Origin: Fidelibacterota bacterium
Lineage (GTDB): Bacteria > Fidelibacterota > UBA8477 > JABMPR01
Assembly: GCA_018650445.1 (NCBI GenBank)
Contig: JABIFX010000253.1
Span: 65,136-129,135, forward strand
DNA: 64,000 bases
Reading direction: 5' to 3'
Shown in pieces: positions 23,673 through 48,533 of the stretch (positions are counted from its first letter, which is position 1; each line of letters begins with the position of its first letter). A program made the translations under genes and the position numbers. A model generated the notes under the pieces. It did no database searches, was not told the origin of the DNA, and saw only the letters and a list, made by a program, of their open reading frames with translations.

Positions 23673-23685
23673 TGGAGAGGTCTGG

Positions 23686-24606
23686 CTATCGGACGATCAG
23701 AATCGGGACATCAGTTTGTTCTAGGGTCTTGATTGGCTTGCTTCCAAACAGAAATTGCTTCACAGGATTCAAGGTTGAGGCACCCATGATGACGAAGTGA
23801 TTGTCTCCGGCGAACTCAACAAAGGTTCTCACGGGGTCTCCAGTGAGAAAAAATTGCTCAACTTCAATACCTCTGGAATCAAAGTATGCTTTTGCCTTAT
23901 CTGCGGCACCCTGATACCCCGCTCCAAACCGCTTGGTTTTGGAAACAGTAAGCGTTCTTACGGGCCATCCCAATTTCCCCGCAATCAAAGCCCCCCATTC
24001 AATGGACTTGCTTGTAGCCGTTGAATCATCCACCAGGAGTAAGAGTTTATATTTCTTGCGAGGATTAAATTTTTGAAGTACAAAAATGGAGGAGGGTAGA
24101 TACTGGAGAATGGAGTGTGCTAAATGGCGTTTGTTCTGACTCCCACCAATAATGGCAAGATCGTAACCCTCCAGTTGTATTTCCTTCCTCAACTGATCAA
24201 CCAACTCACCCTCCCGAAGGACAAGCTCGATACGGCAGCCTTTATCATCAGGTAAAATGACCCGGACACGACCATCTTCTTCATAGACATGATCCGAATT
24301 GAATTGAATTTTTGCCAACTCTTCATTATCGGAGGATAGTTTTTTTAGCTCCTGCAAAGCCCACTCCAGCACTTCCAGACCAGGATGTATGATATTCCAA
24401 TTATCCAGATTCTGACGGGTCAGATTGACAGAACTACCATGAAATTCACTGGCTCTTTCACCGACATAAACCACACCATGACTGGCATCGAAAACAGAGG
24501 CAATGAGTGCGCCCATCTTCAAAGTGGGCTTAGAATATTCAACACTACTTACCGCAGTGAGAAACTTGAGAGATTTTGGGTCGAATGGAGCTTTCTTCTT
24601 TGTCAT
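23686..24606 (-). CDS. tandem universal stress protein (USP) domain protein
   Basis: The track ORF starts at 24621. I prefer ATG 24606, which overlaps the upstream stop as ATGA. It has two USP-like halves, and the C-terminus 'HFVIMGASTLNPVKQFLFGSKPIKTLEQTDVPILIVR' resembles the USP nucleotide-binding end. Confidence 0.65.
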   Translation of the reverse strand: MTKKKAPFDPKSLKFLTAVSSVEYSKPTLKMGALIASVFDASHGVVYVGERASEFHGSSVNLTRQNLDNWNIIHPGLEVLEWALQELKKLSSDNEELAKIQFNSDHVYEEDGRVRVILPDDKGCRIELVLREGELVDQLRKEIQLEGYDLAIIGGSQNKRHLAHSILQYLPSSIFVLQKFNPRKKYKLLLLVDDSTATSKSIEWGALIAGKLGWPVRTLTVSKTKRFGAGYQGAADKAKAYFDSRGIEVEQFFLTGDPVRTFVEFAGDNHFVIMGASTLNPVKQFLFGSKPIKTLEQTDVPILIVR

Positions 24607-26003: not shown

Positions 26004-26099
26004 TAAAATCCCCTGATGTCTCGGATTATTCCGAGATTATGCAATATGGCATAATACAAACTGGATTGAAACAACTCATCGATGTTTCGCCAGCTATGC

Positions 26100-28958: not shown

Positions 28959-28968
28959 ATTTCTATCC

Positions 28969-30579
28969 CTAACTCAGTGGAATCATTTGTGGAACTCTAA
29001 TCCGGACAAACTCGGTAAGGTAAATGCCCAGCGCTGCAAGACCGGCGGCAACAAGAAGCATGAGGTGGCTATCCAGGGTATATAGCATCAGAAGCGGTAC
29101 CAGATTCCCCAAAATGATACCGAGGTAAAAATAGCGGGAATAGTATCCTGATATCATCAGAGTGTGGGCGCGTTTTGTATCGGAGGTCGCATGGGGAGTC
29201 ATAAACTCAAAAGCAATTAAAGCCAGGTTCAACACAACGGCACCTTTAAGAATGGTACTGATAAATGCTATGCCAGATGTATCCAGAACCATCCACGCTG
29301 CAGAGCCTGCTATGATAGCATGAACTAACATGTGTATGGGAGCAAGGTGACTTCCCCAGAGATCTCGACCCTTAGCCTGAGCCAATAAAAAGGCAGTGTA
29401 AATAGCACCTAATACTGCGACTGGCACTGTGATATTGATTAATACCTGTCTGAACCCCAGTTGGAAGTAATTATCTGCCAGGAGGGCTGATATTACACCA
29501 CCGAGGATGGTGATGATATAACCACCGCGGACCAGCCATGATGACCAATTTGGTCGTAGCAATACATATAGGAAACGATCTGGCCGATCCAGGTCTTTTA
29601 CCAGGAGTCCACCCGTCAAACCCATAAAAACAAGGGCGGTTATGAAGGCATTAAATTCTGCCGCCACATTAACACCGACTCCAAACCAGGATAAAAGTGC
29701 CAGAACCAGCATCAAACCAGTTGCTACTGATTTGGTCCAGATATAGGCAGGCACTTCCCAACCCCAGAGTACACCCTTGGAGGGAGAATCATATACGCGT
29801 CTGGTAGTATCTTCCTTTTGGGTTTTCAATTCTTCAAGAACATTGTCAATCGCCCGTTGATCAGGTTGGGTTCCACCTTTTGCGTGGGTCTCCAGGGCCA
29901 TTTGGACCAACAGTTTGGCCTGGTCTGTTTCCTGCGTCGCATCGGCAGCTGCAGGTGCGTGATGCCCCACCCCAGCGGCTTGCTCACTCCACAGATAATC
30001 ATCCCGACGATCCGCCTGGGTGGGGATCAACATATCAGAATCACCTTCGATATAGTATAGATTGGGAGTGGTTCCTTTTTCAGGTTTTCTGGTGACCACA
30101 TGCTCCATAGCCACAAAGGAAGCAATTTTTGAATGGGCATCATCCAGATCACCTGAAATGATAGCCTCAGTGGGACAAATCACCACACAGGCAGGTTCGT
30201 AACCGGTGTCAATCCGGTGTGCACAATAATTACATTTGGCTGCTGTGTTGGTGTCAGGATCAATATAGAGCGCATCATATGGACAAGCCTGCATACACGA
30301 TTTACAGCCAATACAACGATCATTATCAAAATCGACAATACCATCCATGCGGGTATGCAAGGCTGAGGTAGGACAAATTGTAGTACAAGGTGCATCTTCA
30401 CAATGATTGCAACGGTGTACGGAAAAGGAGCGGCTTGCATCGGGGAAGACACCCTTTTCAATGTACTTTACATGGGTCCGGTTGACACCGATAGCCACAT
30501 CGTGTTCAGACTTACATGCAACGGTACAAGCGTGACAGCCGATACATTTTCGATTATCTATGACAAATCCGTAATTCAT
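28969..30579 (-). CDS. fusion of 4x[4Fe-4S] ferredoxin subunit (DmsB/PsrB/SoeB-type) and 8-TM NrfD/PsrC/SoeC-type quinone-interacting membrane subunit
   Basis: 536 aa as one uninterrupted ORF. Cys clusters are 'CIGCHACTVAC', 'CNHCEDAPCTTIC', 'CIGCKSCMQAC' and 'CNYCAHRIDTGYEPACVVIC'. A polar linker ('HAPAAADATQETDQAKLL...') is followed by 8 hydrophobic helices. No signal peptide. Confidence 0.8.
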   Translation of the reverse strand: MNYGFVIDNRKCIGCHACTVACKSEHDVAIGVNRTHVKYIEKGVFPDASRSFSVHRCNHCEDAPCTTICPTSALHTRMDGIVDFDNDRCIGCKSCMQACPYDALYIDPDTNTAAKCNYCAHRIDTGYEPACVVICPTEAIISGDLDDAHSKIASFVAMEHVVTRKPEKGTTPNLYYIEGDSDMLIPTQADRRDDYLWSEQAAGVGHHAPAAADATQETDQAKLLVQMALETHAKGGTQPDQRAIDNVLEELKTQKEDTTRRVYDSPSKGVLWGWEVPAYIWTKSVATGLMLVLALLSWFGVGVNVAAEFNAFITALVFMGLTGGLLVKDLDRPDRFLYVLLRPNWSSWLVRGGYIITILGGVISALLADNYFQLGFRQVLINITVPVAVLGAIYTAFLLAQAKGRDLWGSHLAPIHMLVHAIIAGSAAWMVLDTSGIAFISTILKGAVVLNLALIAFEFMTPHATSDTKRAHTLMISGYYSRYFYLGIILGNLVPLLMLYTLDSHLMLLVAAGLAALGIYLTEFVRIRVPQMIPLS

Positions 30580-36216: not shown

Positions 36217-36647
36217 TCAAGCATACCCTGTGTCTCAAAGCGTTCAATTTCCTCATTCCACCAAGCTGTCACTTGGTCACCAGAGATCATGGTGTTGGCT
36301 TCTACAGCCCATTGTGTCGGTTCAATTCTTACTAACCAACCCTCATCATAGGGTTTTTCATTTACCAGCAATGGATTTCTCAATGCGGCTTCGTTTCTCT
36401 CCATAACGATGCCTGAGAGGGGGGCAATAAGTTCGCTGGTCATCTTGGCGGCTTCGATAGACCCCATGGCTTTACCTAATTCAACAGGTGAACCTACAGT
36501 TGGCAACATCAAATAGGCCAATTCTCCCATGGAATCCAAACCCAGTTCATCCATACCAACCAGGAGTTGACCTGAATCATCCTCCTTTATCCAAAGGTGA
36601 TTTGAGTTATAGTAAAACCCCGGCTTAAACTTGAATTGCTGCTTCAT
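36213..36647 (-). CDS. lbpA: GcvH-like lipoate-binding protein (LbpA-type), copy 1
   Basis: The track ORF is 173 aa. I prefer ATG 36647 ('MKQQFKFKPGFYYNSNHLWIKEDD'), because the longer form overlaps the upstream gene by 110 nt. The lipoyl-lysine context is 'GSIEAAKMTSELIAPLSGIV', followed by 'PYDEGWLVRI'. Confidence 0.8.
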   Translation of the reverse strand: MKQQFKFKPGFYYNSNHLWIKEDDSGQLLVGMDELGLDSMGELAYLMLPTVGSPVELGKAMGSIEAAKMTSELIAPLSGIVMERNEAALRNPLLVNEKPYDEGWLVRIEPTQWAVEANTMISGDQVTAWWNEEIERFETQGMLD

Positions 36648-38676
36648 CTGCCCCTGCTTCCACGGTTGGTTCTGGTAAATCCATGGCATCCATGACATAA
36701 TCAATGATATCCATGACTGCCATATCTGCTTCATGTCCCGATGTTTTTACTGCATCAGCATACATGGTCATGTCCTTGGGACAGGCCACGGTGAAATTAT
36801 TCACACCCACCGAAACGGCTTCTTCGATCCGATTTTCACTGGGTCGCTGATTCATATCCTCATGATCAGGCATCCATACCCGACCACCACCGGCACCACA
36901 GCAAAAACTGTTTTCCTTGTTACGGGGCATTTCAACAGTTTCGACACCACATAACTTCATGACTTCTCTGGGGGCATCATAAACACCATTGTAGCGACCG
37001 AGGTAACAGGGATCGTGATAGGTGGCCTTCATTCCCAAATTCTTCTTTAGTTTGATCTCGTCCTGTTGAATTAAGTCCAATAGCAAAGATGAATAATGTT
37101 TGACTTCAAACTCTCCACCAAGCTTTGGATATTCATTCTTAAGAGTATTAAATGTATGGGGATCTGTGGTAAAGATTTCTTCAAAATCACACTTTTGGAT
37201 GGATTCAATATTCTGTTCTGCCAGCACCTCAAAGAGTCCTTCTTCACCGACTCTGCGAACATCATTTCCTGCTGATTTCTCTCCTTTACCCATGATACCA
37301 AAATCAATTCCGGCTGCATTCAACACCTGGGCGACTTTGCGGGTGGTATCTTGACAATTCTGATTAAAACTGGCAAAATCTCCTACATACCACAGGTATT
37401 TTACTGGTTCCTTTGTCGCATCTTTGATTTTGAAATCCAATTCCTTGGACCATTTGGAGCGTTTACGGGCAGACTCATTAAATGAATTCCCCTGTTCATC
37501 CAGACTGCGCAAGACATCAGCCAGTTCATCAGGCATTTTTGCATCAAATACTTGTTTCCGACGAAGCTCCACGATATCCATCAAAGGTTCATTACCTACG
37601 GGACAGACTTGTACACAAGCATAACAAGTGGTACAGGACCAGAGTGCATCATCAGAAATGGCGTAATCCAGCATGGGTAGGTCTGCACTTCCATTGATAA
37701 CATCCGTGGCTTTATCCCGCACAAAATAGCGCTTGTTGATTTCAAGTGCGGACGGGCTGAGCGGCGTACCACTCTCATGGGCCGGGCAAACTTCATGACA
37801 ACGGGTACACATGATACAAGCCCATGTATCCAGGACTTGCGGCCAGGGTAAATCTGTGAGCGTTGTAGCTCCAGGAGATGTCGGATCCGAGATGGCATCC
37901 ATGGCTCCTCGGGGTGTCTGGCGACCTAAGGCCAGGTTCACCGGGGCAATCATCATATGAATGTGCTTAGAACTGGGGAAATAAGGAAGAAAGACCACAA
38001 TAAGACCCATGGCCAGCCACCAGGTTACATGGATACCTGTTTCCAGGGCACCTGGGGACCAGCTAGTGAATAATCCTGAAAGGATACTTGCTGTGGGTAA
38101 CCAGGCATCTGTATGACCATTTTCTGCTAAATGAAGGGCGGTTCCCATCCAACGAGATCCCACGTGGATCAAAATAAAAATGCCTACGATAAGTGAGTCT
38201 TTTTTGACACCACCAGCCGCCACATTGGGGTGGAGTTTTACATTGGCATTAAATTCCAAAACCTTGGGTTTTTTAATAAAGCGACGGTAGAGGAAAAAAA
38301 GCATCCCTGTTATTACCAGAACACTGAACAGGTCTGCAAAAAGATTAAATACTCCTGCAATGGAACCAGCACCGATGGTGGTCCAACCAGCCACATAGGC
38401 TTCCAGAATATCGTTCACATTCACCAGCAGATAAAAACTAAAACCAAAGAATATGAAGCTATGCATAAAACTTACAAATGGTCTGGCTTTAGAGATTGTT
38501 TTTTGGAGTCCGATTTCGATTAGAGTAGTGACAAAGCGACTGATAAGTTTATCAAACCTATCCATCTTGCCACCACGCGAAACGATTTGATAGATTTGTC
38601 TAAATCTACCAAAGGCCAGACTCAGGCAAACAATGACTAATACAATAAATCCAATTTGTTCATAGGTTGATAGCAT
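36625..38676 (-). CDS. membrane-anchored HdrD-like Fe-S oxidoreductase (N-terminal multi-TM His-rich domain + 2x[4Fe-4S] + 2 CCG domains; Etf:quinone oxidoreductase EtfD/EMO-like or DsrMK-like)
   Basis: 683 aa. The N-terminal ~250 aa has about 5-6 TM helices with conserved-looking His ('FMHSFIFFG', 'LIHVGSRW', 'GIHVTWWL', 'KHIHMM'). The rest has 'CIMCTRCHEVCP', 'CTTCYACVQVCP', 'YHDPCYLGRYNG' and 'FCCGAGGG'. Confidence 0.75.
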   Translation of the reverse strand: MLSTYEQIGFIVLVIVCLSLAFGRFRQIYQIVSRGGKMDRFDKLISRFVTTLIEIGLQKTISKARPFVSFMHSFIFFGFSFYLLVNVNDILEAYVAGWTTIGAGSIAGVFNLFADLFSVLVITGMLFFLYRRFIKKPKVLEFNANVKLHPNVAAGGVKKDSLIVGIFILIHVGSRWMGTALHLAENGHTDAWLPTASILSGLFTSWSPGALETGIHVTWWLAMGLIVVFLPYFPSSKHIHMMIAPVNLALGRQTPRGAMDAISDPTSPGATTLTDLPWPQVLDTWACIMCTRCHEVCPAHESGTPLSPSALEINKRYFVRDKATDVINGSADLPMLDYAISDDALWSCTTCYACVQVCPVGNEPLMDIVELRRKQVFDAKMPDELADVLRSLDEQGNSFNESARKRSKWSKELDFKIKDATKEPVKYLWYVGDFASFNQNCQDTTRKVAQVLNAAGIDFGIMGKGEKSAGNDVRRVGEEGLFEVLAEQNIESIQKCDFEEIFTTDPHTFNTLKNEYPKLGGEFEVKHYSSLLLDLIQQDEIKLKKNLGMKATYHDPCYLGRYNGVYDAPREVMKLCGVETVEMPRNKENSFCCGAGGGRVWMPDHEDMNQRPSENRIEEAVSVGVNNFTVACPKDMTMYADAVKTSGHEADMAVMDIIDYVMDAMDLPEPTVEAGADEAAIQV

Positions 38677-38798
38677 TAGGACTGACTCCTGTGTTAATAA
38701 CTTTGTTTAAGATTAATCACTACGAGGTTGAGAGTTGCTGATAGCTCTCTTCCCCACTTTACCCTTCGTGTTGATAAAACTGGGAAATATCTAAAGAC

Positions 38799-39020
38799 TT
38801 AAGTCTGTGAGGAGGACTCTTCTTTCTTGGCGGTACTAAGTTTGAGGGGCCAGTACAGTGGGCAAAAGCTCATGAAGCTGGTAAGCAGAAAAATAACTGC
38901 TACAGCGCCTAAAACGATAGCTGCCGTTCCACTGATTTGATCCATGAAATATAACACTCCAATTAATACTGCCAGAGTTGCCCGAATCGCTCGATCGATT
39001 GAACCCATATTTGTTGGCAT
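38799..39020 (-). CDS. DUF2892-family small membrane protein (YgaP C-terminal-domain-like)
   Basis: 73 aa. 'MGSIDRAIRATLAVLIGVLYF' and '...FCPLYWPL' are typical of DUF2892. Two TM helices. Confidence 0.65.
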   Translation of the reverse strand: MPTNMGSIDRAIRATLAVLIGVLYFMDQISGTAAIVLGAVAVIFLLTSFMSFCPLYWPLKLSTAKKEESSSQT

Positions 39021-39176
39021 AATTTTCTTCCTTCTTTTTATTGCGTATACCGGACTATTAAAAATTCTCTATGAGCCAGACGACTGAAAAAATCAACCCA
39101 AGACAAACCACGCATACGGCGAGCAGTTTTAGGGCTTTTTTACCTGCTGAATCGTCACTTGGATGTCCCTGATCTG

Positions 39177-40121
39177 TCAATCCAATTCCTCTAATAGTTC
39201 TTCCACTACATCAAACAAATCTTCCGTCATTCCATAATGAGCGACGTCAAAAATAGGTGCGTTCTTATCTGTGTTGATGGCAATGATCGTAGATGTCGCT
39301 TTCATACCTTCGATATGCTCTGGAGCACCAGAAATACCCAGCGCGATATACACCTTCGGTTTTACCTTCATGCCGGATTTTCCAACCTGGTGAGATTTTG
39401 ACATCCAACCTGCATCAACGATAGGACGGGAGCAGGCAATATCTGCTTCCAGAGCTTCTGCCAGCTCTTCAGCAACTTCGATATCATCTTTACTGCCAAT
39501 ACCCCGGCCAACAGCCACCAGAATATCACTCTGAGTGATATCAACATCAGCTGCCTCTGGCTCAATCAATTGTTTAAAGCGAACCTTTCCGGCTCCGGCC
39601 TCAACTGCTGATGCTTCCACGGCTGGTGACCCGGAAACTCTCCCGGTATCCGCATTGAATGATCCTGCCAGAACCATAGAAATGAGGGCTCCATCCACAC
39701 TGCTAACAACATTCATTTTGCCACCATACATTTGACTTGTACAGGTAAATCCACCTCCTGCAGCCACGATATCTGCACAAAAACTTACAGTAGGAATATC
39801 GAGTGCTGTAGAAACAGGATTTGCTATATCAATCCCCATCGATGTAGAACCAATCATGATCAGATCTGGAGAATTTGCTGAAACGACAGATTTTACTGCT
39901 GCAGCGTATGCTTCAGGATTATAGTCATCACCAACTTCAGCCGTAATGACTGTATCCGCTGCTCCCATTTGATCGGTTTGACCACTCATACTGCCAAAGA
40001 CCATAGCTGAACATGACCCACCAGTAGATTGTGCAATTTCTTTGGCCTTCCCCAACATTTCAAATGTGATATCCTGGAATTCACCCTTCAGGTGTTCGGT
40101 TACAACGAGAATGTTAGCCAT
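39177..40121 (-). CDS. etfA: electron transfer flavoprotein, alpha subunit
   Basis: 314 aa. The C-terminal FAD domain reads 'VAVGRGIG...CSRPIVDAGW...QVGKSGMKVKPKVYIALGISGAPEHIEGM'. The start overlaps the etfB stop (TGATG). Confidence 0.9.
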   Translation of the reverse strand: MANILVVTEHLKGEFQDITFEMLGKAKEIAQSTGGSCSAMVFGSMSGQTDQMGAADTVITAEVGDDYNPEAYAAAVKSVVSANSPDLIMIGSTSMGIDIANPVSTALDIPTVSFCADIVAAGGGFTCTSQMYGGKMNVVSSVDGALISMVLAGSFNADTGRVSGSPAVEASAVEAGAGKVRFKQLIEPEAADVDITQSDILVAVGRGIGSKDDIEVAEELAEALEADIACSRPIVDAGWMSKSHQVGKSGMKVKPKVYIALGISGAPEHIEGMKATSTIIAINTDKNAPIFDVAHYGMTEDLFDVVEELLEELD

Positions 40122-40867
40122 CAGGCCACCCCCTTATCTTTCAATACGGCCATTAAGGCTTCAACATCATCCAGCATTTTAGCTCCCAAACCCTTTTCAG
40201 GTGCGGCCATACTGCTAATGGCACTTCCAGCTCCAGCCCCTAAATCACCGGCATCCATTTCCTGGATGGTTTCAGTTTGTTGGATTTGTCTCACTTTACT
40301 CACTGGAGCATAGCGAGGTGCTTGAGCCGCAGCTTGAATCCCCAACACTGCAGGAAGATCTACTTCAAACTCGCCCAACATACCGCCAGAGTATTCCTTC
40401 TGTACTGTAGCCTGTCCACCAGAGACGCTAACACCAGCCACGACACTGATGCAGGGGACTGATAGATATTCAGCCATAATGGGTCCCAAATGACCATCGC
40501 GACCATCAGCAGATTGCACTCCTGCCATAACCAGATCAAAACCCTCTGTGGCAACAGCATTGGCAAATGCTTTGGCTAATTGATGTATATCTGTGGGGCT
40601 GCTACCGTTTAATTTGATCGCCTTGTTTGCACCTTTGGCAATGGCAGTAAATAACATTTTGTCGACATCTTCCCCGTCAAAAGCCATTGCAACCACCTCG
40701 TCAGCCGCACCACTCTCTTTTAAGAGCAGCGCTTCCTCGAGTGCTTGATCGTCAAATTCATTTAATTTTAACTTGACCTCTTCAGCATCCAGAGCTTTTC
40801 CAGTGGCATCCACCTCCAGGTCTTCTACCAGGTCTGGTACTTGTTTTAAAGGCACGACGATCTTCAT
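40121..40867 (-). CDS. etfB: electron transfer flavoprotein, beta subunit
   Basis: 248 aa. 'MKIVVPLKQVPDLVEDLEVD' and 'DLVMAGVQSADGRDGHLGPIMAEYL' are typical of EtfB. GGAG SD upstream. Confidence 0.9.
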   Translation of the reverse strand: MKIVVPLKQVPDLVEDLEVDATGKALDAEEVKLKLNEFDDQALEEALLLKESGAADEVVAMAFDGEDVDKMLFTAIAKGANKAIKLNGSSPTDIHQLAKAFANAVATEGFDLVMAGVQSADGRDGHLGPIMAEYLSVPCISVVAGVSVSGGQATVQKEYSGGMLGEFEVDLPAVLGIQAAAQAPRYAPVSKVRQIQQTETIQEMDAGDLGAGAGSAISSMAAPEKGLGAKMLDDVEALMAVLKDKGVA

Positions 40868-40881
40868 ATTTCTCTCCTCAT

Positions 40882-41112
40882 TTACTTCATACGCTGGATA
40901 AAAAAGTTTCTCGTATCACCAGCTTCTTCTATATCTAATAATTTCTGTCCGGACGACCTGCACCAGGCGTTGATATCAGGGACTGATCAGGGGTGAGCAC
41001 TACTCAACTGAAGAACGCCCCCGATAGGGAGATTCCTCAAAGCCTGCCAGGATCGAATCACTGGCATACCCATTCCACAAGGTCCCGTATCAATGTGCAA
41101 ATCTACTTTCAT
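40882..41112 (-). CDS. TusA/SirA-fold small protein (76 codons) interrupted by one in-frame TGA at codon 42 (plus-strand 40987..40989): candidate selenoprotein or recent pseudogene
   Basis: Found by hand; it is below the ORF-track size cutoff. The ATG at 41112 overlaps the upstream stop (TGATG). Translation is MKVDLHIDTGPCGMGMPVIRSWQALRNLPIGGVLQLSSAHP-TGA-SVPDINAWCRSSGQKLLDIEEAGDTRNFFIQRMK-TAA. This aligns without gaps to the TusA at 47408..47644 (ELDCKGMNCPLPILKTKKQIDTMGSGEVLKMIATDPGSINDMTSWTKRTGNELL...YVFFIKKT). The natural stop lies 14 nt before the etfB ATG. Confidence 0.55.
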
Positions 41113-42410
41113 CAGGCAGTGTCTTCGCCTTCACTCATGCAATAATCAAGAATTTCAATGATATCCATGACCAGTAGCTTACCATCATTATTTGTAGATT
41201 TAACAGCATCTTCAAAACGTGAGACTTCATAGGGGCAGCAGACAGCTAATATCTCAGCACCTACTTCCACAGCTTCCTTGACCCGGTTTTCCGATAGACG
41301 TTCAGCAGAGTTATCCGCCATGAGTCCATCCAACCACATGCCTCCACCACCTCCACCGCAGCAATAGGCTTGTTCTTTGTTTCGATACATTTCCATATAT
41401 TCGATCTCAGGGACGGCATTCAAAAGAGTGCGCGGGGCATTGTATTCGCCATTATGACGACCTAAATAGCAGGGATCATGAAAAGTAACCTTCTTGGGGA
41501 AGGGCCGTTTCATCAGCTTGGCTAAATCATCAACCCGTTCTTCCAGGAGTTGGGTATAGTGCTGTAAATTGTATTCTTTTCCGGTAACAGCAGGGTAGAA
41601 ATTCTTAAAAGCATTGTAAGCATGGGGATCACTGACGACCAATTTGTTATGTTCATATTTATCAAACTGGATTCCATTATGTTCTGCCAATTCTTCAAAT
41701 AAACCGGATTCACCCACCAGACGCTGAGAATCACCATCACATTTTTCTTCTTTTCCCAGGATGCCAAAATCAATCCCCAAACGATTAAACACTCGTACAG
41801 TTGCTTTGGCGGCATCATTTCCACGATTGTGGTAGGAGAAGTAATCACTGACGTACCATAAAACATCTACTGGCTCTGGGTCCGTTTCTTTTGACAAATC
41901 GCGAACGGGTTCTTCAAATTTGCGTAGCCATCCCACTCGTTTACGGGCTGATTCGCCCATAGGATTGCCATATTCAGCAACATTCTGCAACATGTCCTGT
42001 ATTTCACCAGGAACATTGCCATTCAATACTGCCTGTTCTCTGGCTGCAGGGATAATCTGAATCATATCGACTTCTTTTGGACAAACACGAAGACAATTTG
42101 AACAAGTCGTGCACAGCCATAAATCATCATGATCGAAAAAATCCATACCGGTCTGAAGCTTTCGAAAAATTTTGCGTGGTCCATAGCTACCTACATTATC
42201 GACAGGACAAACCCCAATGCATTGGGCACATTGATAGCAGGCATTGATGGATTTAGCACCGGGTAACTCACGTAATTTTTCGAGACCGTCAATATCATAG
42301 GTCAGGATCTCACGGGGTTCATACATCTTGTTCCACTCACCGGATAGATCAACCCCATCTACTACGACATTGTCTTTCTGGACAAATTTTTCATATTTAT
42401 GTTCAGACAT
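41112..42410 (-). CDS. soluble HdrD-like Fe-S protein (2x[4Fe-4S] + 2 CCG domains; HdrC/HdrB fusion type, 'sHdrB3'-like)
   Basis: 432 aa with 'CYQCAQCIGVCP', 'CTTCSNCLRVCP', 'FHDPCYLGRHNG' and 'YCCGGGGG'. It is clearly paralogous to the C-terminal two thirds of 36625..38676. Confidence 0.8.
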   Translation of the reverse strand: MSEHKYEKFVQKDNVVVDGVDLSGEWNKMYEPREILTYDIDGLEKLRELPGAKSINACYQCAQCIGVCPVDNVGSYGPRKIFRKLQTGMDFFDHDDLWLCTTCSNCLRVCPKEVDMIQIIPAAREQAVLNGNVPGEIQDMLQNVAEYGNPMGESARKRVGWLRKFEEPVRDLSKETDPEPVDVLWYVSDYFSYHNRGNDAAKATVRVFNRLGIDFGILGKEEKCDGDSQRLVGESGLFEELAEHNGIQFDKYEHNKLVVSDPHAYNAFKNFYPAVTGKEYNLQHYTQLLEERVDDLAKLMKRPFPKKVTFHDPCYLGRHNGEYNAPRTLLNAVPEIEYMEMYRNKEQAYCCGGGGGGMWLDGLMADNSAERLSENRVKEAVEVGAEILAVCCPYEVSRFEDAVKSTNNDGKLLVMDIIEILDYCMSEGEDTA

Positions 42411-42412
42411 TA

Positions 42413-43168
42413 TTAATTCATCTCCATACTTTTTACCCCAAGAATCTGCTGGGTCAACTCAGTCAGCTCAGGTAATATCCGATTAAATTCTTGGGAAAGT
42501 TTCACGCGAAAAACTGTATACATGTAGACAGCATACACACAGGCAAAAAAGATATCTGTTCCGAATAATCCTGCTCCAGCACTGGAAAAACCAACTCGGT
42601 GCCCTACAGCATTCACCAGCGCGGTGGTTTGTCCTATCTTGACATACAGCTCCCCTGGAGTCTTGGCTTCAAGATCAATATCGTCTTGTAGAACCAGAGA
42701 TAATGCTCCGGTATGTTTCTTGAAATCCCAGATCCAGTTTGTCCAAAGCCAATATTTTTGCGGATTAGAGAAGTGCAATAATTCGCAAATTAGATTGAAG
42801 CGCATCGTATCGTTCATCATTTCCAGTGCCTGACTGGCTTGATTAAATCTGACATCCAGGGCTTCATCGCCGTAGAGTAAAGTTGCCAATGTTTCTCTCA
42901 GGGATTCAATTTCTATCGCCTTCAAGATTTTATTCGCTTTCCGCTTAATGGAAAAAATAGAAGCAATGAGCTGCTTGAATTCATCCGCAGTCAGTTCTGC
43001 AATGTGCTCTTCAGACAACAGCTCTGAAAACAATCTGGCTTTATTCTCCAGGCGTTGCCCGATATCTTCCAGATCAGTGGAAGTTGCCAATTTGGTCGCT
43101 TCTTTCATAAACTCCAAAGCGGCTTCAGAGTCTACAACATCTGCAATATTTACTTTATCGTAGAGCAT
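42413..43168 (-). CDS. hypothetical protein at the 'hyp' position of shdr clusters
   Basis: 251 aa with no motif I recognise. It sits between the HdrA-like and HdrD-like genes (gaps of 0 and 2 nt). Confidence 0.5.
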   Translation of the reverse strand: MLYDKVNIADVVDSEAALEFMKEATKLATSTDLEDIGQRLENKARLFSELLSEEHIAELTADEFKQLIASIFSIKRKANKILKAIEIESLRETLATLLYGDEALDVRFNQASQALEMMNDTMRFNLICELLHFSNPQKYWLWTNWIWDFKKHTGALSLVLQDDIDLEAKTPGELYVKIGQTTALVNAVGHRVGFSSAGAGLFGTDIFFACVYAVYMYTVFRVKLSQEFNRILPELTELTQQILGVKSMEMN

Positions 43169-44236
43169 TTAGGCTGGTTGTAACTCAGATTTTCTTATAA
43201 AACTACAGGCCTTCATCACGGCTGAGCCACCCATGGAAACAGAATCTTCCAAATCAGCTGGACCGGCGGCCGCACCAACAACAAAAACACCAGGGACCGT
43301 GGTTTCAACTGTATTCAAAGCTCCACCAGTAGTTTCTATATAGCCATGTGGTTCGAGGGGTAGCTCGAAGGTATCAGCCATTTCTACGGTTCCATCACTG
43401 GGCTCCATGCCTACTGATAGAATAACTACATCCATGGCAACTTCCATGGGACGACCCATGGTGGTATCTTCACCCTTTACAACCAGCGTGTCACCTCGTT
43501 TTGTTACTTCGGTAACAATACCACGGATAAAATTCACATTATAGTCTTCCTGGGCTTTCCAATAAATTTCATCTTCCCAGAAGCCGTAGGTACGCATATC
43601 GATATAAAAGACAAAAACGCGTGCATCTGGAGCGGCTTCTTTGACTTCAATGGCTTGCTTACAAGCAATGCCGCAGCAGACCTTGGAACACCACTGATTT
43701 CCTATCTGACGATCTCTACTTCCAACACATTGGATAAAACAGACGGTTTTGGGGGCTTCTCCAGTTGACGGTCGGGCAAACTCATCTGCCTTGAGCATTT
43801 TCTCAGCATCCACCAGAGTGATCACATCTTCAAACTCATAGTAACCATACATCTGGGTTTCTTTGCCTGGATCAAAATGTTTGAAGCCTGTGGCAACGAT
43901 GACGCTACCCACTTCTAGAATTTCTTCACCTCCGGCATTTTTCACAGTCACTTCCATATTGGGCGCATCACCCTTGGAACCGACAACCGTGGTACTCAAA
44001 CGAATATCTATAGATGGATTGTCCGTAATAGCAACAATCATCTCACCCATGGCCTCTTCCGGACTGCGCATATCCGGGGTCAAAGCAGCATAGTCGGCTG
44101 AAATAGGCATTCCGCCCAGAAAATCGGCCTTTTCAATCAAAATAGCCTGATACCCGAGATCAGCGATCCCACGCACAGCCTCTAAACCGGCAGGTCCACC
44201 ACCGATAACTAATATTGGTTTACTTGACATCTGCAT
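43169..44236 (-). CDS. hdrA: short HdrA-like FAD/[4Fe-4S] flavoprotein (sHdrA-type)
   Basis: 355 aa with 'ILVIGGGPAGLEA' and 'CFIQCVGSRDRQIGNQWCSKVCCGIAC' (four-Cys cluster motif). It lacks the ferredoxin and MvhD-binding domains of methanogen HdrA. Confidence 0.85.
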   Translation of the reverse strand: MQMSSKPILVIGGGPAGLEAVRGIADLGYQAILIEKADFLGGMPISADYAALTPDMRSPEEAMGEMIVAITDNPSIDIRLSTTVVGSKGDAPNMEVTVKNAGGEEILEVGSVIVATGFKHFDPGKETQMYGYYEFEDVITLVDAEKMLKADEFARPSTGEAPKTVCFIQCVGSRDRQIGNQWCSKVCCGIACKQAIEVKEAAPDARVFVFYIDMRTYGFWEDEIYWKAQEDYNVNFIRGIVTEVTKRGDTLVVKGEDTTMGRPMEVAMDVVILSVGMEPSDGTVEMADTFELPLEPHGYIETTGGALNTVETTVPGVFVVGAAAGPADLEDSVSMGGSAVMKACSFIRKSELQPA

Positions 44237-45428
44237 CCTCCCATGTCATAAAATCCAGTTCTCCACTTTCAATTCTTCCAGCGATGGCTTCAAATTCTCC
44301 CCATGCTTTTTTGTAGTCGATTCCCATCTTTTCCAGCAACGGCTTATTATCAACTCCATGCCAGTGAAGCTGACAAACGTTATACGGATGAGCACCCATG
44401 GCTAAGGCAGCGTACTGTGCATCGGATAGCACAGGAATGCCCACATTTCTACCATGTGCCTTTGCAGCAAATTGGCTTTTATCCAGAGTGGTAACACAAC
44501 CCGTGTCATGGGTCAGGGTCACATCAGGATCCACTTCTTCCTTCATTCGTTCAATTTTTCTAATGGTGGCAAAAGAGCGCGAAAAATCCCTGCTCACCAG
44601 AATATGCCTGAAGCCGAATCCACAGCAATCATGCCAGGTGGAATAATCAGCTGCAGTAGATCCCAGAGCTTCAACCAAGCTGGTTACCACAGCAGTACGT
44701 TGTCCATCATATAATTCGCGGTCATAGATAGCATCCTCTACAACCAGTTTGTGGTAATGACAGGCGGGATGAACTGTGACAGTTAGATCGCTAAAATCCA
44801 GAACCTGTCTTTCTGCAATTCGGTGCCGCATGACATGGATCCATTCAGAGTAATGCACGATCTCTTCTGGGAAGACAAAGGGCATTTTCAATTTGTCCAT
44901 TATGCGACGCACCTGGTCTCTTAGTTCAGGGTGATGTATGATTTCTTCCCGAGTTTCCTTATAATGACCAAAACTGGTTCCACAATGGATCAGGGGGAAA
45001 TATCCATCCTGTTTGGCTTGAGCAAAGTTACGTACAGCTACAGAAGCCTGGGCGGCGGAGTTTGATGTAGAAGAAGCATAGTAATTCCAGGCCGTACAGG
45101 ATGATTGATCCTTGGGATCATAGTAATCCAGACCAAACTGTCTGTGTAGCCAGAAAATGGCTGTTGAATACCCTGGAATATGTCCACACTGTCCGCAGGA
45201 TTTATGATGCCAAGTATGTTCGATGGGTATCTTTTTTTTCCTGCCATATTTGGTCTCTACTTCTTCAAATGGTTCGGGGACTCGGTGTACTTCCAACTCA
45301 CCTTTAGCTTCTAATTCAAAGAGCTTCTCCCGGTAATCTTCCGTAGGTGGTTTGCCCTTACGAACATACTCTCGCATTGGCGACTTTTTCTCGGTATGTA
45401 CTGCCGGTGCTTGGGTTGTCTCTGCCAT
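44220..45428 (-). CDS. hdrB: HdrB-like CCG-domain protein (sHdrB1-type)
   Basis: 402 aa with 'WHDCCGFGFRH', 'HPACHYHK' and 'HDTGCVTT'. It overlaps the hdrA-like start by 17 nt. Confidence 0.8.
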   Translation of the reverse strand: MAETTQAPAVHTEKKSPMREYVRKGKPPTEDYREKLFELEAKGELEVHRVPEPFEEVETKYGRKKKIPIEHTWHHKSCGQCGHIPGYSTAIFWLHRQFGLDYYDPKDQSSCTAWNYYASSTSNSAAQASVAVRNFAQAKQDGYFPLIHCGTSFGHYKETREEIIHHPELRDQVRRIMDKLKMPFVFPEEIVHYSEWIHVMRHRIAERQVLDFSDLTVTVHPACHYHKLVVEDAIYDRELYDGQRTAVVTSLVEALGSTAADYSTWHDCCGFGFRHILVSRDFSRSFATIRKIERMKEEVDPDVTLTHDTGCVTTLDKSQFAAKAHGRNVGIPVLSDAQYAALAMGAHPYNVCQLHWHGVDNKPLLEKMGIDYKKAWGEFEAIAGRIESGELDFMTWEDADVK

Positions 45429-45461
45429 TATATTATTTCCTTGTTGCTAAGCTCTGTTTTA

Positions 45462-46181
45462 TCAATCATCCAGGATATTCTCGAAGTCATCTATATCATA
45501 TCCATTGTCTTCCAGAAGCTCTTCCATCACTTCTTCCAGAATCATATAAATTCCCTCATCAATCCCTTCGATGAGCTCCAGGTTACCGGTCAATTTCCAG
45601 ATCATATAAAGTTCGAGTCTGGTTTTTTCAGAAACATCCCAGGCCAGTTCAGTGGTATGCAGCGTCTCCGGGGGAATGGCTCTACGCCAGACATCCAGAT
45701 TTTCAGCAACTGCTTTTACATCATTACCCCAGTCTGGGAAAAAGTCGGGTTGAAGCATATCAGGGGCTACCTGAGTTCCGGTGGCCATGACTTTGTAGAT
45801 AATGCGACTGTAAGCTTGTAAAGCATCTTTAGCAGATTGCAAACCGCGGCGGACAGCTGCATCGCGCATCATGAGAATAATTCCACCGGGATTATTCTGA
45901 CGGGGGCAACGGGTACACGAGTAACATTGAGAGCAATCCCAGACGCTATCATTTAACAGCTCATAGAAGGTGTCCACATCTTCACGAGCCATGGTCTGGG
46001 CAAAAACGCGGGGACTGAAATCATAAAATCTGGCGGAGGGACATGCGGCAACACAAATTCCGCATTCATAGCAACCGTACAAATTATTTCCATATCGCAT
46101 GTCAGCCTTGACTTCATTGAAGAGTTCTAATTTCTCTTCATAGGGGACATCCATATATTTTGCATCTTTATAAATCGACAT
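45462..46181 (-). CDS. hdrC: HdrC-like 2x[4Fe-4S] ferredoxin subunit (sHdrC1-type)
   Basis: 239 aa with 'CYECGICVAACP' and 'CSQCYSCTRCP'. Confidence 0.8.
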   Translation of the reverse strand: MSIYKDAKYMDVPYEEKLELFNEVKADMRYGNNLYGCYECGICVAACPSARFYDFSPRVFAQTMAREDVDTFYELLNDSVWDCSQCYSCTRCPRQNNPGGIILMMRDAAVRRGLQSAKDALQAYSRIIYKVMATGTQVAPDMLQPDFFPDWGNDVKAVAENLDVWRRAIPPETLHTTELAWDVSEKTRLELYMIWKLTGNLELIEGIDEGIYMILEEVMEELLEDNGYDIDDFENILDD

Positions 46182-46493: not shown

Positions 46494-46955
46494 TTAGCCT
46501 TCAAAGCCTTCGCAATGAATGCACTCGCCCATATCCTTTTCAGCCATATAAGCATCAAATCCAACAATGGCATCTGCTCCGTTGACCAAGGCACTTGCCT
46601 CTTCATCGAAATTGCTGGGGTTGATTTTGACAATCCAGCCAGCTTTATAAGGACTCTTATTAAGGAGTGTACCATCACCTGCAACAGCTTCATTGGCCTC
46701 CATAATCTCACCGGCAAAGGGAGTTTTAACGGGGCCAACCCATTTACCACTTTCTACAGTGGCTACACTTTTTCCCAGCTTGACTGAGCGACCCACTTTT
46801 TTAGGACGACAATGGATAATACTTCCAGCCATGCTTTGGGCGATATCAGTCATCCCCAAATCGACGGTTCCATCATCATTCTTGCGTACCCATACGTTAT
46901 ACTCAACGTGGTACAGAAGATCATCAGGTAACATGCAGTTTTTTAATTCAGCCAT
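46494..46955 (-). CDS. lbpA: GcvH-like lipoate-binding protein (LbpA-type), copy 2, with C-terminal CxxC extension
   Basis: 153 aa. The lipoyl-lysine context is 'VATVESGKWVGPVKTPFAGEI', followed by 'PYKAGWIVKI'. There is an extra C-terminal tail 'DMGECIHCEGFEG'. Confidence 0.8.
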   Translation of the reverse strand: MAELKNCMLPDDLLYHVEYNVWVRKNDDGTVDLGMTDIAQSMAGSIIHCRPKKVGRSVKLGKSVATVESGKWVGPVKTPFAGEIMEANEAVAGDGTLLNKSPYKAGWIVKINPSNFDEEASALVNGADAIVGFDAYMAEKDMGECIHCEGFEG

Positions 46956-46970
46956 ACTCTTCCCCTTCTA

Positions 46971-47345
46971 TTAGTACGTTAAAACCATATCACTTTCGAG
47001 GCCAACATCCGTCATATAGGCAGCTCCAACAACGCCATCACAGGCTTCAGTCAGGTCATCCTCTGTCATATCGTGTAGCTGAAGTGCGGCAGAACAGACA
47101 TACATTTCAACATCAGCATCTTTCGCATCCTGGATGAAATCGGCCACAGATTTACCACCCTCTTTTGCAAACAGCCCTTCAGAAACACCGTGTTTCAGCA
47201 ACAGAATTCCGTCAATCTGGAATATCATTTCTACCTCATTATCCATGGCAGCAGCAACACTGGCCATATAAAATGGAGTTGCACATCGCTGTGGAGTTGC
47301 CGGACCAGAGGTCACGAATATGGTTACTTTTCCTTCGTCAGACAT
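46971..47345 (-). CDS. DsrE/DsrF-family sulfur-relay protein (DsrE3-like)
   Basis: 124 aa with 'VTIFVTSGPATPQRCATPFYMASVAAAMD' and 'MYVCSAAL'. Confidence 0.7.
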   Translation of the reverse strand: MSDEGKVTIFVTSGPATPQRCATPFYMASVAAAMDNEVEMIFQIDGILLLKHGVSEGLFAKEGGKSVADFIQDAKDADVEMYVCSAALQLHDMTEDDLTEACDGVVGAAYMTDVGLESDMVLTY

Positions 47346-47407
47346 TTAGGTATTCCTTTATTTATTATTCTGATAACAAATGGACCAAGAGGTTCTCAAG
47401 GTATCAA

Positions 47408-47644
47408 TTACGTTTTCTTTATAAAAAAAACGTAATCGCCACCATCCTGAGAGTGTGATAGTAGTTCATTACCGGTACGTTTTGTCCATGAAGTCATGTC
47501 ATTAATAGATCCCGGGTCAGTGGCTATCATTTTTAAAACCTCTCCAGAACCCATTGTATCAATCTGTTTCTTGGTTTTCAGGATAGGCAAAGGACAATTC
47601 ATACCTTTGCAGTCAAGTTCTTGGTCATATGCTTGATCGTTCAT
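47408..47644 (-). CDS. tusA: TusA-family sulfur carrier
   Basis: 78 aa. 'LDCKGMNCPLPILKTKK' is the canonical CPxP active site, and '...ATDPGSINDM' follows. Confidence 0.9.
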   Translation of the reverse strand: MNDQAYDQELDCKGMNCPLPILKTKKQIDTMGSGEVLKMIATDPGSINDMTSWTKRTGNELLSHSQDGGDYVFFIKKT

Positions 47645-47668
47645 TTGATTTCCTTTTTTACAAGTGGT

Positions 47669-48184
47669 TTAAACAAACAGAGATATATCAGAGTCAGCTG
47701 CGAACTCTAGAAAAGTTGCCGCTCCACCCAGATCAACACCATCGATGAATTGATCTTTAGTAAACCCAAATACATCCATGGTCATCTGACAACCAATCAG
47801 TTTTACTCCCATTTCTACACAGATATCACGTAATTCCTCTATGCTGGCGACGCCTTTGTTTGCAAAAGTCTTCTTCATAAGCGATGTAGCCATGGTTTCA
47901 AACCCAGGTACGTTTCCAGCGATAACATTTGGAATCGGCCAACTAATATTTTGGAAGCCCTGGGGTCCAAAAGGCATTTTCATAGGCATCGCTGGATTTG
48001 TTTGCGGAGCAACCTTGGCAGAAAGATCTTTTTGAAGTAGTGTCAATCCGTAAAACGTAAAGAAGATTCCTACCTCCATATCCATTGCGGCAGCAGTGGA
48101 GGCCAGGATAAAGGGTGGATATGCCCAATCCAGGGTTCCCTGTGATGCTATAAGAGCTAATCGTTTGGGTTTGGTTTCACTCAT
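47669..48184 (-). CDS. DsrE-related protein (DrsE_2-like, ~170 aa type)
   Basis: 171 aa with 'RLALIASQGTLDWAYPPFILASTAAAMDMEVGIFFTFYGL' and 'LIGCQMTMDVFG'. Confidence 0.65.
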   Translation of the reverse strand: MSETKPKRLALIASQGTLDWAYPPFILASTAAAMDMEVGIFFTFYGLTLLQKDLSAKVAPQTNPAMPMKMPFGPQGFQNISWPIPNVIAGNVPGFETMATSLMKKTFANKGVASIEELRDICVEMGVKLIGCQMTMDVFGFTKDQFIDGVDLGGAATFLEFAADSDISLFV

Positions 48185-48533
48185 GTTTACTCCTTTTTGA
48201 CTCTGGAAATATATCTTTCATCTGCATTTCACCTGTCTCCAGGTCCAGTCTGCAGGAATTCATACATTCCAGAAGTTTGCGGATCATGTCACTGGCTAAT
48301 GAATAATATGTGCTGGTCCCCTCTTTACGTGATGCGAGAATATTGTTGTTTTGCATAAAGCGTAAATGTTGCGAGGTAACGGGCTGGGACAGACCTATTC
48401 CCTGTTGGATTCTACCAACTGTCTGCTCACCAGTCTGGAGCAGTTCAATTATTTTCAGCCGTTCTGGGTGCCCCAAAGCTTTGAGAACTTTTGAGGCCGC
48501 CTCGAAAAACACTATGTTATTTACAGCATTCAT
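48177..48533 (-). CDS. ArsR/SmtB-family transcriptional regulator (sHdrR/SoxR-like position)
   Basis: 118 aa. The winged helix reads 'HPERLKIIELLQTGEQTVGRIQQGIGLSQPVTSQHLRFMQNNNILASRKEGTSTYYSL', and Cys residues occur in 'LLECMNSC'. It is the first gene of the minus-strand cluster. Confidence 0.8.
   Translation of the reverse strand: MNAVNNIVFFEAASKVLKALGHPERLKIIELLQTGEQTVGRIQQGIGLSQPVTSQHLRFMQNNNILASRKEGTSTYYSLASDMIRKLLECMNSCRLDLETGEMQMKDIFPESKRSKHE

Follow-up and report, generated by a model that had tools for sequence, protein, structure and literature searches.

Selenocysteine (Sec) can be inserted at in-frame UGA codons, which raises the question whether a short unannotated stretch within a sulfur-oxidation operon is a selenoprotein gene or the remnant of a carrier gene interrupted by a nonsense mutation. 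The window analyzed in this work is a stretch of 64,000 nucleotides of a Fidelibacterota bacterium (contig JABIFX010000253.1), which carries a type II sHdr gene cluster. An earlier note, based on the sequence alone, pointed out that the apparent gap between an HdrD-like gene (hdrB3) and etfB holds a reading frame with similarity to TusA, a single in-frame TGA and a SECIS-like hairpin, and proposed either a Sec-containing sulfur/selenium carrier or a GGA-to-TGA nonsense mutation too recent to have degraded the rest of the gene. In this work we have analyzed the conservation, RNA structure, predicted fold and genomic context of this gene, and conclude that it is a conserved gene for a small TusA-fold protein whose TGA very probably encodes selenocysteine, an inference drawn from comparative data. 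We found no description of such a selenoprotein family: it is absent as a family from Pfam and NCBIfam, from a 2026 selenoproteome review and from the papers that we searched, although a description in Haft & Tolstoy 2025 (PMC12013261) cannot be excluded.

Organization of the locus

The genes and motifs discussed below, given in coordinates of the window, are as follows.
40882..41112, minus strand: full coding sequence of the Sec-containing TusA-like protein (76 codons plus TAA), translationally coupled to hdrB3 through the TGATG overlap
40987..40989, minus strand: in-frame UGA, codon 42, read as selenocysteine (motif S-[SAG]-H-P-U-[AS]-x-P-D)
40953..40970, minus strand: SECIS-like hairpin, ACGCCU / AGG-U-CGU stem with a bulged U and apical GGUGC (G-C closed GUG)
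40947..40983, minus strand: outer limits of the optional lower stem GUCC/GGAC
41077..41079, minus strand: Cys12 codon in the loop before helix 1 (G-x-C-G-M-G-M-P)
40990..40995, minus strand: His40-Pro41 codons preceding Sec
40975..40977, minus strand: Asp46 codon
41112..42410, minus strand: sHdrB3 (fused HdrC2/HdrB2-like protein, two CCG domains plus a 4Fe-4S dicluster)
40121..40867, minus strand: etfB
39177..40121, minus strand: etfA
36625..38676, minus strand: EMO-like membrane Fe-S/CCG oxidoreductase (ETF:menaquinone oxidoreductase of type II sHdr clusters)
42413..46181, minus strand: sHdrH (42413-43168), sHdrA (43169-44236), sHdrB1 (44220-45428) and sHdrC1 (45462-46181)
46494..48533, minus strand: sulfur-relay genes at the head of the operon, namely lbpA (46494-46955), dsrE3-like (46971-47345), canonical tusA (47408-47644), dsrE2-like (47669-48184) and an ArsR-type regulator (48177-48533)

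The reading frame was confirmed in every coordinate given by the earlier note. The ATG shares its A (41112) with the TGA stop of hdrB3, the TAA lies 14 nt before the etfB ATG at 40867, and the TGA at codon 42 is the only one in the frame. With Cys in place of the stop, the protein scores 41.9 bits on the Pfam TusA model (PF01206; cut-off 28.6) and the match runs across the TGA (residues 16-74). It aligns without gaps to the canonical TusA encoded at 47408..47644 (25% identity over 59 residues, E 3e-11). A search for CCTGGTGCAGG in the window gave one exact match, at this locus.

The window carries exactly the type II sHdr cluster (shdrC1B1AHB3-etfAB-emo; Kuempel et al. 2024 and Tanabe et al. 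2024 as cited in PMC11094781), with all the genes in order at 36625..46181, dsrE, tusA and lbpA upstream and lipoate-assembly genes downstream. The published cluster has nothing between shdrB3 and etfB. In 38 of 41 GTDB-representative type II loci with both genes, the gene studied here is not found between hdrB3 and etfB: most have hdrB3 abutting etfB, and some have other inserts. The gene is an accessory insertion in a few marine lineages (loci L003, L006 and L008 of our collection, and the metagenomic Marinimicrobia and SAR324-like contigs). It occurs in two contexts, hdrB3-[gene]-etfB and arsR-tusA-dsrE2-[gene]-rhodanese/MBL-FeS/NrfD.

Conservation of the in-frame TGA

A tblastn search over 150 related loci from public genomes and metagenomes yielded 74 family copies, of which 72 carry TGA at the aligned codon (40-99% amino-acid identity; 56 distinct DNA versions, 44 distinct proteins), with no further stop up to the normal end. 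Of the remaining two, one has TTA (L131) and one has TAA plus a second stop (L139). A first word-based protein search found only a 41-aa stub, but an exhaustive HMMER search of 1.84 billion representatives gave 17 clusters truncated at, or translated as W across, the codon, and five related clusters (P0122, P0145, P0154, P0163 and P0177) with Cys there, encoded by TGC or TGT. A Cys form also follows tusA-dsrE2. GGN (Gly) was found only in the canonical TusA paralogues, and the orthologues do not carry the GGA or GCA which the earlier note had named, together with an absence of Sec-decoding genes, as the sign of a pseudogene.

The codons following the TGA are under purifying selection, with a median dN/dS of 0.25 for codons 43-72 and 0.09 for codons 10-41, and there is no in-frame start codon after the TGA until codon 75. 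TGA is an ordinary stop in this DNA, since it ends 17 of 55 long ORFs in the window including hdrB3 itself; a genome-wide reassignment of TGA (code 4 or 25) was therefore rejected, and the recoding is site-specific. The proteins with W at this position (P0124-P0126, P0132) look like database translations made with code 4. A scan of the window for other read-through ORFs found nothing convincing, and a scan of all loci for TGA followed by the same hairpin motif found only out-of-frame chance hits outside the family.

The SECIS-like hairpin

The hairpin described in the earlier note is formed by the stem 40970..40965 / 40959..40953 with a bulged U, the loop GGUGC at 40964..40960 and the lower stem 40983..40980 / 40950..40947, except that the loop starts 22 nt, and not 23 nt, after the UGA. 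The loop pattern G-G-U-G-C, the spacing and the stem length (7 bp with a bulge, 4 + 3) fit the bSECIS model quoted in PMC13188914. The MFE is -9.7 to -10.5 kcal/mol for the 53-60-nt context but only -6.5 for the hairpin alone, whereas most orthologues score -9 to -16. On this one sequence the hairpin is no better than chance: the MFE fold of 40940..40992 picks a different pairing, with z = +0.32 against dinucleotide shuffles, so that the caution expressed in the earlier note (a short hairpin that could arise by chance) was justified. No Rfam family matched at gathering thresholds in the whole window, and no SECIS family matched the locus at E <= 10.

The feature is shown to be real only by comparison with orthologues, in which it lies at a fixed distance from the UGA. 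RNAalifold did not recover it from the mixed alignment and chose a 3-bp alternative (C10-C11 with G26-G27), because two clades use registers that differ by 1-2 nt; we therefore scored a named structure and applied codon-shuffle tests. The named structure is 76-77% paired, against 68-72% in shuffles (0 of 500 shuffles reach it) and 22-56% when the partners are slid, and four to five pairs show double changes. The hairpin is also held by synonymous-codon choice: Arg at nt 31-33 is AGG in 45 of 46 cases against 5 of 78 Arg codons elsewhere, and Ala is GCC in 43 of 46 against 33 of 108 elsewhere. The mean z against synonymous-codon shuffles is -2.1, although in the window sequence and its closest clade (L008/L095-like) the hairpin is short and not more stable than chance (z -0.1 to -1.6). 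Four of five Cys forms lack the hairpin (z +0.36, +0.20, +1.67 and -1.75), while one (L152) keeps a stable one. The lower stem is present in the window and in the L008-like clade but is not conserved in other clades, its GGA codon being replaced by AAA and others in L104/L105-type sequences.

Predicted fold and active site

AlphaFold2 gave a confident TusA fold (pLDDT 93.8, b-a-b-a-b-b topology), and the top Foldseek hits of the model were TusA, YeeD and SirA-like structures, with E. coli TusA (PDB 3lvj_C) matched at TM 0.89 and rmsd 1.4 A. The protein retains the second Pro of CPxP and the D-P-x loop proline, but the defining Cys of the CPxP motif is Met14, in the motif C-G-M-G-M-P. Residue 42 lies in the loop before helix 2, at the start of that helix, and is inferred to occupy the pocket that holds the catalytic Cys of canonical TusA. 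By alignment, His40 corresponds to the conserved Asp45, Sec42 to Ala47 and the nearly invariant Asp46 to the active-site Asp51 of E. coli TusA, in which Asp45 H-bonds the backbone NH of Cys19 and Asp51 is 4.2 A from the Cys19 sulfur (PMC2854127). An additional Cys12, two residues upstream of the canonical Cys position, is conserved in nearly all Sec and Cys forms and sits in the neighbouring loop. On this inferred geometry it is a clean case of an active-site residue moving to a neighbouring loop of the same pocket in a very small protein. The second Cys noted earlier (U-x8-C, Cys51) is not a conserved partner of Sec: it is Ser or Val in some clades, aligns with Cys56 of E. coli TusA, lies about 2.5 helical turns from Sec42, and its codon is part of the hairpin loop.

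Decoding and possible function

The data are best explained, with good confidence, by a functional gene for a 76-residue selenoprotein with the TusA (SirA) fold. It is inferred that a hairpin 19-37 nt downstream of UGA42 acts as a bacterial SECIS and recruits SelB-GTP-Sec-tRNA(Sec), so that selenocysteine is inserted instead of terminating. From gene neighbourhood only, the protein is inferred to be an extra carrier in the cytoplasmic sulfane-sulfur relay, which takes sulfur from TusA or DsrE2/DsrE3 as a selenenyl-persulfide (Se-S-S-), possibly with Cys12 as resolving or relay residue, and hands it on to the sHdr/LbpA oxidising machinery in the window organism, or to the downstream sulfur enzymes in lineages where the gene follows tusA-dsrE2. 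A distant clade of the family (L143-L151), however, has no sulfur genes nearby.

The main alternative, considered unlikely, is that UGA42 is recoded by something other than the canonical SelA/SelB/tRNA-Sec system, either by hairpin-stimulated read-through by a near-cognate tRNA (Cys or Trp) or by an unknown decoding route. No selA, selB, selD or tRNA-Sec was found in the 64-kb window (including a Pfam search of 30 further ORFs; ARAGORN found no tRNA at all), in the 10 kb beyond its right-hand end or in 1.35 Mb of related loci, the rest of the genome remaining unsearched. In addition, Peng et al. 2016 list three SAR406 and two SAR324 single-cell genomes as "orphan SelD" organisms, in which SelD was found but not SelA, SelB or known selenoproteins; this could reflect incomplete genomes or a real absence. 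The short hairpin in the window's own clade points the same way. On the other hand, the hairpin matches the SelB-type bSECIS model in loop sequence (G-G-U-G-C, or GGUCU in the distant clade), stem length and spacing, the alternative residue at the column is Cys, the usual Sec counterpart, the single-cell genomes are incomplete, and the presence of SelD shows selenium activation. SelB-independent Sec or Cys recoding of UGA also seems to be without precedent in bacteria.

It is very unlikely that translation really stops at UGA42 and that the downstream sequence is conserved for RNA-level reasons such as coupling or attenuation of etfB translation, even though gene callers and NCBI annotate 41-44-residue hypothetical proteins and the hairpin lies between the UGA and etfB. 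The downstream conservation is protein-like, stays in frame without further stops in 72 copies with synonymous changes dominating, and completes helix 2 and strands 3-4 of the predicted fold; the same arrangement occurs where no etfB follows, and a 41-residue fragment would be half a domain. A pseudogene derived from a duplicated tusA is excluded by the comparative data. Gly (GGN) in canonical TusA is one base away from TGA, and a few copies do look decayed (L131, L139 and the frameshifted L003), but the TGA is shared by 72 copies which differ by up to 60% in protein sequence and come from at least three lineages (Marinimicrobia, SAR324-like, others) and both gene contexts, and the family has its own conserved motifs (GMGMP, HPU) besides the selection and the Cys forms described above. 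A sequencing or assembly error is refuted, since identical DNA, TGA included, is found in independent assemblies from ENA (L001), JGI (L082), NCBI and Logan, and the identical 41-aa stub is on record from MGnify/ENA, JGI (6 contigs) and Logan (4 contigs).

More tentatively, this protein could be the missing selenoprotein of the orphan-SelD lineages SAR406 (Marinimicrobia) and SAR324, which would offer an explanation for their SelD. If it carries sulfane sulfur as a selenenyl-persulfide into the sHdr or Soe-like oxidation machinery, dissimilatory sulfur oxidation by some of the most abundant bacteria of oxygen-minimum zones would depend on selenium, linking the selenium and sulfur cycles there. 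Should those genomes truly lack SelA and SelB, the conserved UGA and hairpin would be decoded by a route not yet known.

Relation to known families

The protein scores far below the NCBIfam cut-off for the TusA equivalog (NF001423; 18.3 bits against 78). It is encoded next to tusA, dsrE and hdr genes, like the sulfur-relay TusA proteins described in PMC11094781, but its reactive residue is Sec (or Cys) five residues into the D-P-G/A loop before helix 2. The best NCBIfam hit was YedF, a TusA-like "selenium metabolism protein" (NF008242 / TIGR03527), at 26.2 bits against a cut-off of 79, so that the protein is not a member; YedF has a genomic link to selenium but is not a selenoprotein, keeps the CPxP motif and is usually fused to a DsrE-like domain (PMC5322559).

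Standard pipelines miss the family, and NCBI annotates 41-residue "hypothetical proteins" on hundreds of contigs. The parent family has Gly or Ala rather than Cys at the Sec position and Cys forms are in the minority, so Cys/Sec-pair searches that start from annotated proteins have little to work with. Sec-containing DsrE-like and rhodanese-like proteins (PMC2398784, PMC13188914) are likewise small sulfur-trafficking proteins, found mainly in marine metagenomes and identified through Sec/Cys pairs plus a bSECIS, but their folds are unrelated and Sec replaces the canonical, persulfide-carrying active-site Cys. In the family described here, Sec clusters outnumber Cys clusters (17 against 5).

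Gene organization of the UGA-containing locus

On the minus strand, 40882..41112 of the window reads MKVDLHIDTGPCGMGMPVIRSWQALRNLPIGGVLQLSSAHP-TGA-SVPDINAWCRSSGQKLLDIEEAGDTRNFFIQRMK-TAA. The ATG shares one base with the TGA stop of the upstream gene (TGATG) and the TAA lies 14 nt before the next ATG. All coordinates proposed in the earlier note hold. The window has a G+C content of 44%. The neighbouring genes have been assigned by Pfam as follows:
41112..42410: upstream gene sHdrB3, a fused HdrC/HdrB-type protein with two CCG domains
further upstream: sHdrH, sHdrA, sHdrB1, sHdrC1, LbpA, DsrE3-like, canonical TusA, DsrE2-like and an ArsR-type regulator
downstream: EtfB, EtfA and a membrane CCG/Fe-S protein (EMO)

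This organization corresponds to the type II sHdr sulfur-oxidation cluster (PMC11094781). With Cys placed at codon 42 the protein passes the Pfam TusA threshold (41.9 against 28.6 bits) and the match spans the stop.

Conservation of the in-frame TGA

Type II sHdr loci were collected from GTDB representative genomes with the use of an HdrB3 alignment. Three of them hold a gene in the same slot with TGA at the same codon: a Neomarinimicrobiota MAG (70% identity), an unclassified MAG (58%) and a SAR324 MAG. An alignment of these copies retrieved 70 metagenomic loci. Over all loci 72 copies have TGA at the aligned codon, one has TTA and one has TAA plus a second stop; none has a Gly codon, whereas the 19 canonical TusA paralogues in the same loci all have GGN. 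The copies comprise 56 distinct DNA versions and 44 distinct proteins, down to 40% identity. A few copies look decayed: that of the SAR324 REDSEA MAG (locus L003:8049-8223) is frameshifted between the GMGIP and HP-TGA parts, L131:224-433 has TTA (Leu) at the Sec codon in an otherwise intact gene and L139:4001-4189 has TAA plus a second stop. One Neomarinimicrobiota MAG, Fu_MAG_87, holds two type II sHdr contigs, of which one (L008, HdrB3 84% identical) has the Sec gene and the other (L002, 79%) does not, pointing to two operons or a mixed bin.

The median dN/dS is 0.25 for codons 43-72 and 0.09 for codons 10-41, and no in-frame start codon exists that could express the second half separately. 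TGA terminates 17 of the 55 long ORFs of the window, including hdrB3 one base upstream of the ATG of this gene. The organism therefore uses TGA as a stop and this site is an exception. The pseudogene and base-call readings are excluded.

Homologs with Cys at the Sec position

A word-indexed protein search found only the 41-residue stub. An exhaustive HMMER search of 1.84 billion cluster representatives found three groups of relatives: 17 clusters that end exactly at ...S-x-H-P or carry W at the position (translations that read TGA as Trp), five clusters with Cys there (SSHPCAESD, SSHICSYPD, SQHPCSYSD, SEHACSFSD and SSHLCSYPD), and the canonical TusA proteins. The Cys codons are TGC or TGT. A UGA that alternates with Cys in homologs is the standard criterion for selenocysteine (PMC13188914). 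A 582-residue JGI protein (P0310) clusters with the 41-44-residue stubs and may be an HdrB3-to-stub read-through call, and one further protein (P0222) has Arg at the Sec position (SISHPRAEPD).

SECIS-like hairpin downstream of the UGA

In the main clade, nucleotides 19-37 after the U of UGA form a hairpin whose apex is invariably CCUG-GUG-CAGG. The lower stem varies with compensation, being AAUG/CAUU in locus L100, GCUG/CAGU in L006, AAGU/ACUU in L123 and GAGGG/GCCUC in L133. The most distant clade has a different protein sequence there (HSWVSRC) but again a 7-bp hairpin, with a GGUCU loop shifted by 1-2 nt. On a named 8-9-bp structure 76-77% of cells pair, whereas shuffles give 68-72% (0 of 500 reach the observed value) and slid registers give 22-56%; four to five pairs show double changes.

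The clearest signal has been found in synonymous sites. The Arg codon in the 3' arm is AGG in 45 of 46 sequences, while AGG is 5 of 78 Arg codons elsewhere in these genes, and the Ala codon in the 5' arm is GCC in 43 of 46, against 33 of 108 elsewhere. Hairpins are on average 2.1 sd more stable than synonymous-codon shuffles. As a control, four of the five Cys forms have no such hairpin (z +0.36, +0.20, +1.67, -1.75), although one Cys form (L152) keeps a stable one. In the window sequence itself and in its nearest clade the hairpin is short and not significant on its own, no Rfam SECIS family matches, and RNAalifold did not recover the hairpin on the mixed-register alignment. The element fits the published bSECIS constraints (PMC13188914): a G-G-U-G-C apex, 22 nt from the UGA, and a 4+3-bp stem with a bulged U. 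The 11-mer CCTGGTGCAGG with one mismatch occurs 6 times in the window, against 1 expected, but only the copy at 40957-40967 is exact and follows a TGA; the others, at 4186, 33046, 33187, 35202 and 50474, lie inside ordinary genes and look like codon-usage effects.

Predicted structure and relation to known TusA proteins

AlphaFold2, run with X at residue 42 and 82 homologs, gives pLDDT 93.8 and pTM 0.83, with the elements b1 5-10, a1 16-25, b2 33-38, a2 44-54, b3 57-64 and b4 67-73. The best PDB matches found by Foldseek are E. coli TusA (3lvj_C, TM 0.89, rmsd 1.4 A), YeeD and SirA-like proteins.

Table. Residues of this protein and their equivalents in E. coli TusA, from the alignment with canonical TusA.
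This protein: E. coli TusA
Met14: Cys19
Pro17: second Pro of CPxP
His40: Asp45
Pro41: Pro46
Sec42: Ala47
Asp46: Asp51
Cys51: Cys56

In the IscS-TusA crystal structure Asp45 H-bonds the backbone NH of Cys19, and Asp51 lies 4.2 A from its sulfur (PMC2854127). Sec42, placed between those two positions at the N-terminus of helix 2, is therefore inferred to sit in the same pocket that normally holds the persulfide-accepting Cys. The family thus keeps the TusA scaffold and the catalytic Asp; by this inference it has moved the reactive chalcogen to the neighbouring loop, and it has replaced Asp45 by His and gained Cys12. Cys12 is conserved in almost all Sec and Cys forms, with Ala in L006 and Phe in L098/L102. 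The earlier note pointed to a second Cys following the TGA ('U-x8-C'), but this residue, Cys51, is Ser or Val in some clades and its codon is part of the hairpin loop, and we do not regard it as a conserved partner.

The protein is predicted to have the fold of a TusA-type carrier and is inferred to work like one, but it fails the defining CPxP-Cys test and falls below the NCBIfam TusA and YedF cut-offs. Sec-containing DsrE-like and rhodanese-like proteins are known. Within the literature accessible to us, which did not cover every relevant paper, a Sec-containing TusA/SirA protein is found neither in the GOS selenoproteome table, nor in the 2026 review's table of prokaryotic selenoprotein families, nor in the BSepDB and deep-Sep papers, nor in any of the papers found on TusA together with selenoproteins or selenocysteine. 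NCBI annotates the 41-44-residue stubs as hypothetical proteins on hundreds of contigs. We consider that it probably represents a new selenoprotein family within the TusA fold, with a relocated active site.

Putative decoding and role in sulfur transfer

The comparative data reveal a conserved, selected, UGA-containing gene of the predicted TusA fold with a SECIS-like hairpin, embedded in sulfur-trafficking operons. It is inferred that Sec is inserted at residue 42 in a SelB-dependent manner. It is further inferred that the selenolate accepts sulfane sulfur from TusA or DsrE proteins as Se-S-S-, possibly relayed or resolved by Cys12, and delivers it to the LbpA/sHdr system or other sulfur enzymes. 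The overlap with the hdrB3 stop suggests coupled, roughly stoichiometric synthesis with HdrB3. In the absence of experimental data and of a check for the Sec machinery, we consider it very likely that this is a genuine recoded Sec gene of the TusA fold, whereas the specific sulfur-relay chemistry is about as likely as not. The finding, solid by the comparative standards of the field, bears on the selenium dependence of marine sulfur oxidation.

No Sec-decoding gene lies in the window, in the 10 kb beyond its right-hand end or in any of the loci collected, the sequence beyond the left-hand end not being covered. The only literature found on these lineages lists three SAR406 and two SAR324 single-cell genomes as 'orphan SelD' organisms, which have SelD but in which no SelA, SelB or known selenoprotein was detected (PMC5029168). 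This cuts both ways. Selenium is activated in exactly the lineages that carry this gene, and an unrecognised selenoprotein family, which may be the missing SelD-dependent trait, could explain why SelD looked orphan. If SelA and SelB are truly absent, however, decoding would have to be unconventional. Incomplete single-cell genomes make the ordinary explanation more likely.

Genomic associations

The gene has been found in three contexts. The first is hdrB3-[gene]-etfB, present in Marinimicrobia-like, SAR324-like and two unclassified lineages. Variable accessory ORFs sit around the gene in some copies: a Rieske-type protein (CPHAGF...CPEHGSRF), and in locus L083 a second unknown ORF, lie between hdrB3 and the Sec gene (L083:2725-4000, L003:7276-8040 and L129/L136, about 730 nt after hdrB3), and a 4HBT-thioesterase-like ORF lies between the Sec gene and etfB (L084-L088, 450 nt before etfB). 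Of 41 GTDB-representative type II sHdr loci with both hdrB3 and etfB only three carry the gene; in most of the others the two genes abut and some hold other inserts. It is therefore an accessory of the sulfur relay and not a core sHdr subunit.

The third context is a distant clade of the family comprising Sec and Cys forms (loci L143-L151, L153, L156, L158, L159), with a conserved N-terminal extension (DIEDIRREIEKTPKPD...) and the motif S-G-H-P-U-S-Y-P-D-I-H-S-W. It has no sulfur genes nearby, the neighbours including a multihaem cytochrome, RecG, DnaN, DnaA and ValRS, and its function may differ.

The second context, found in other Marinimicrobia, is arsR-tusA-dsrE2-[gene]-rhodanese/metallo-beta-lactamase-FeS/NrfD fusion. 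The closest Cys form (cluster P0122) also follows tusA-dsrE2. The last protein of this arrangement (L104:5407-7014) is 64% identical to the one encoded at 28969..30579 of the window, where the following genes lie on the minus strand downstream of the lipoate-assembly genes:
28969-30579: fused 4Fe-4S/NrfD membrane protein
26100-28958: 952-aa molybdopterin oxidoreductase
22269-26003: two Na+/sulfate-symporter-family genes flanking a Usp gene

This group of genes (22269-30579) may be a Soe-like sulfite or sulfur module with an export route.
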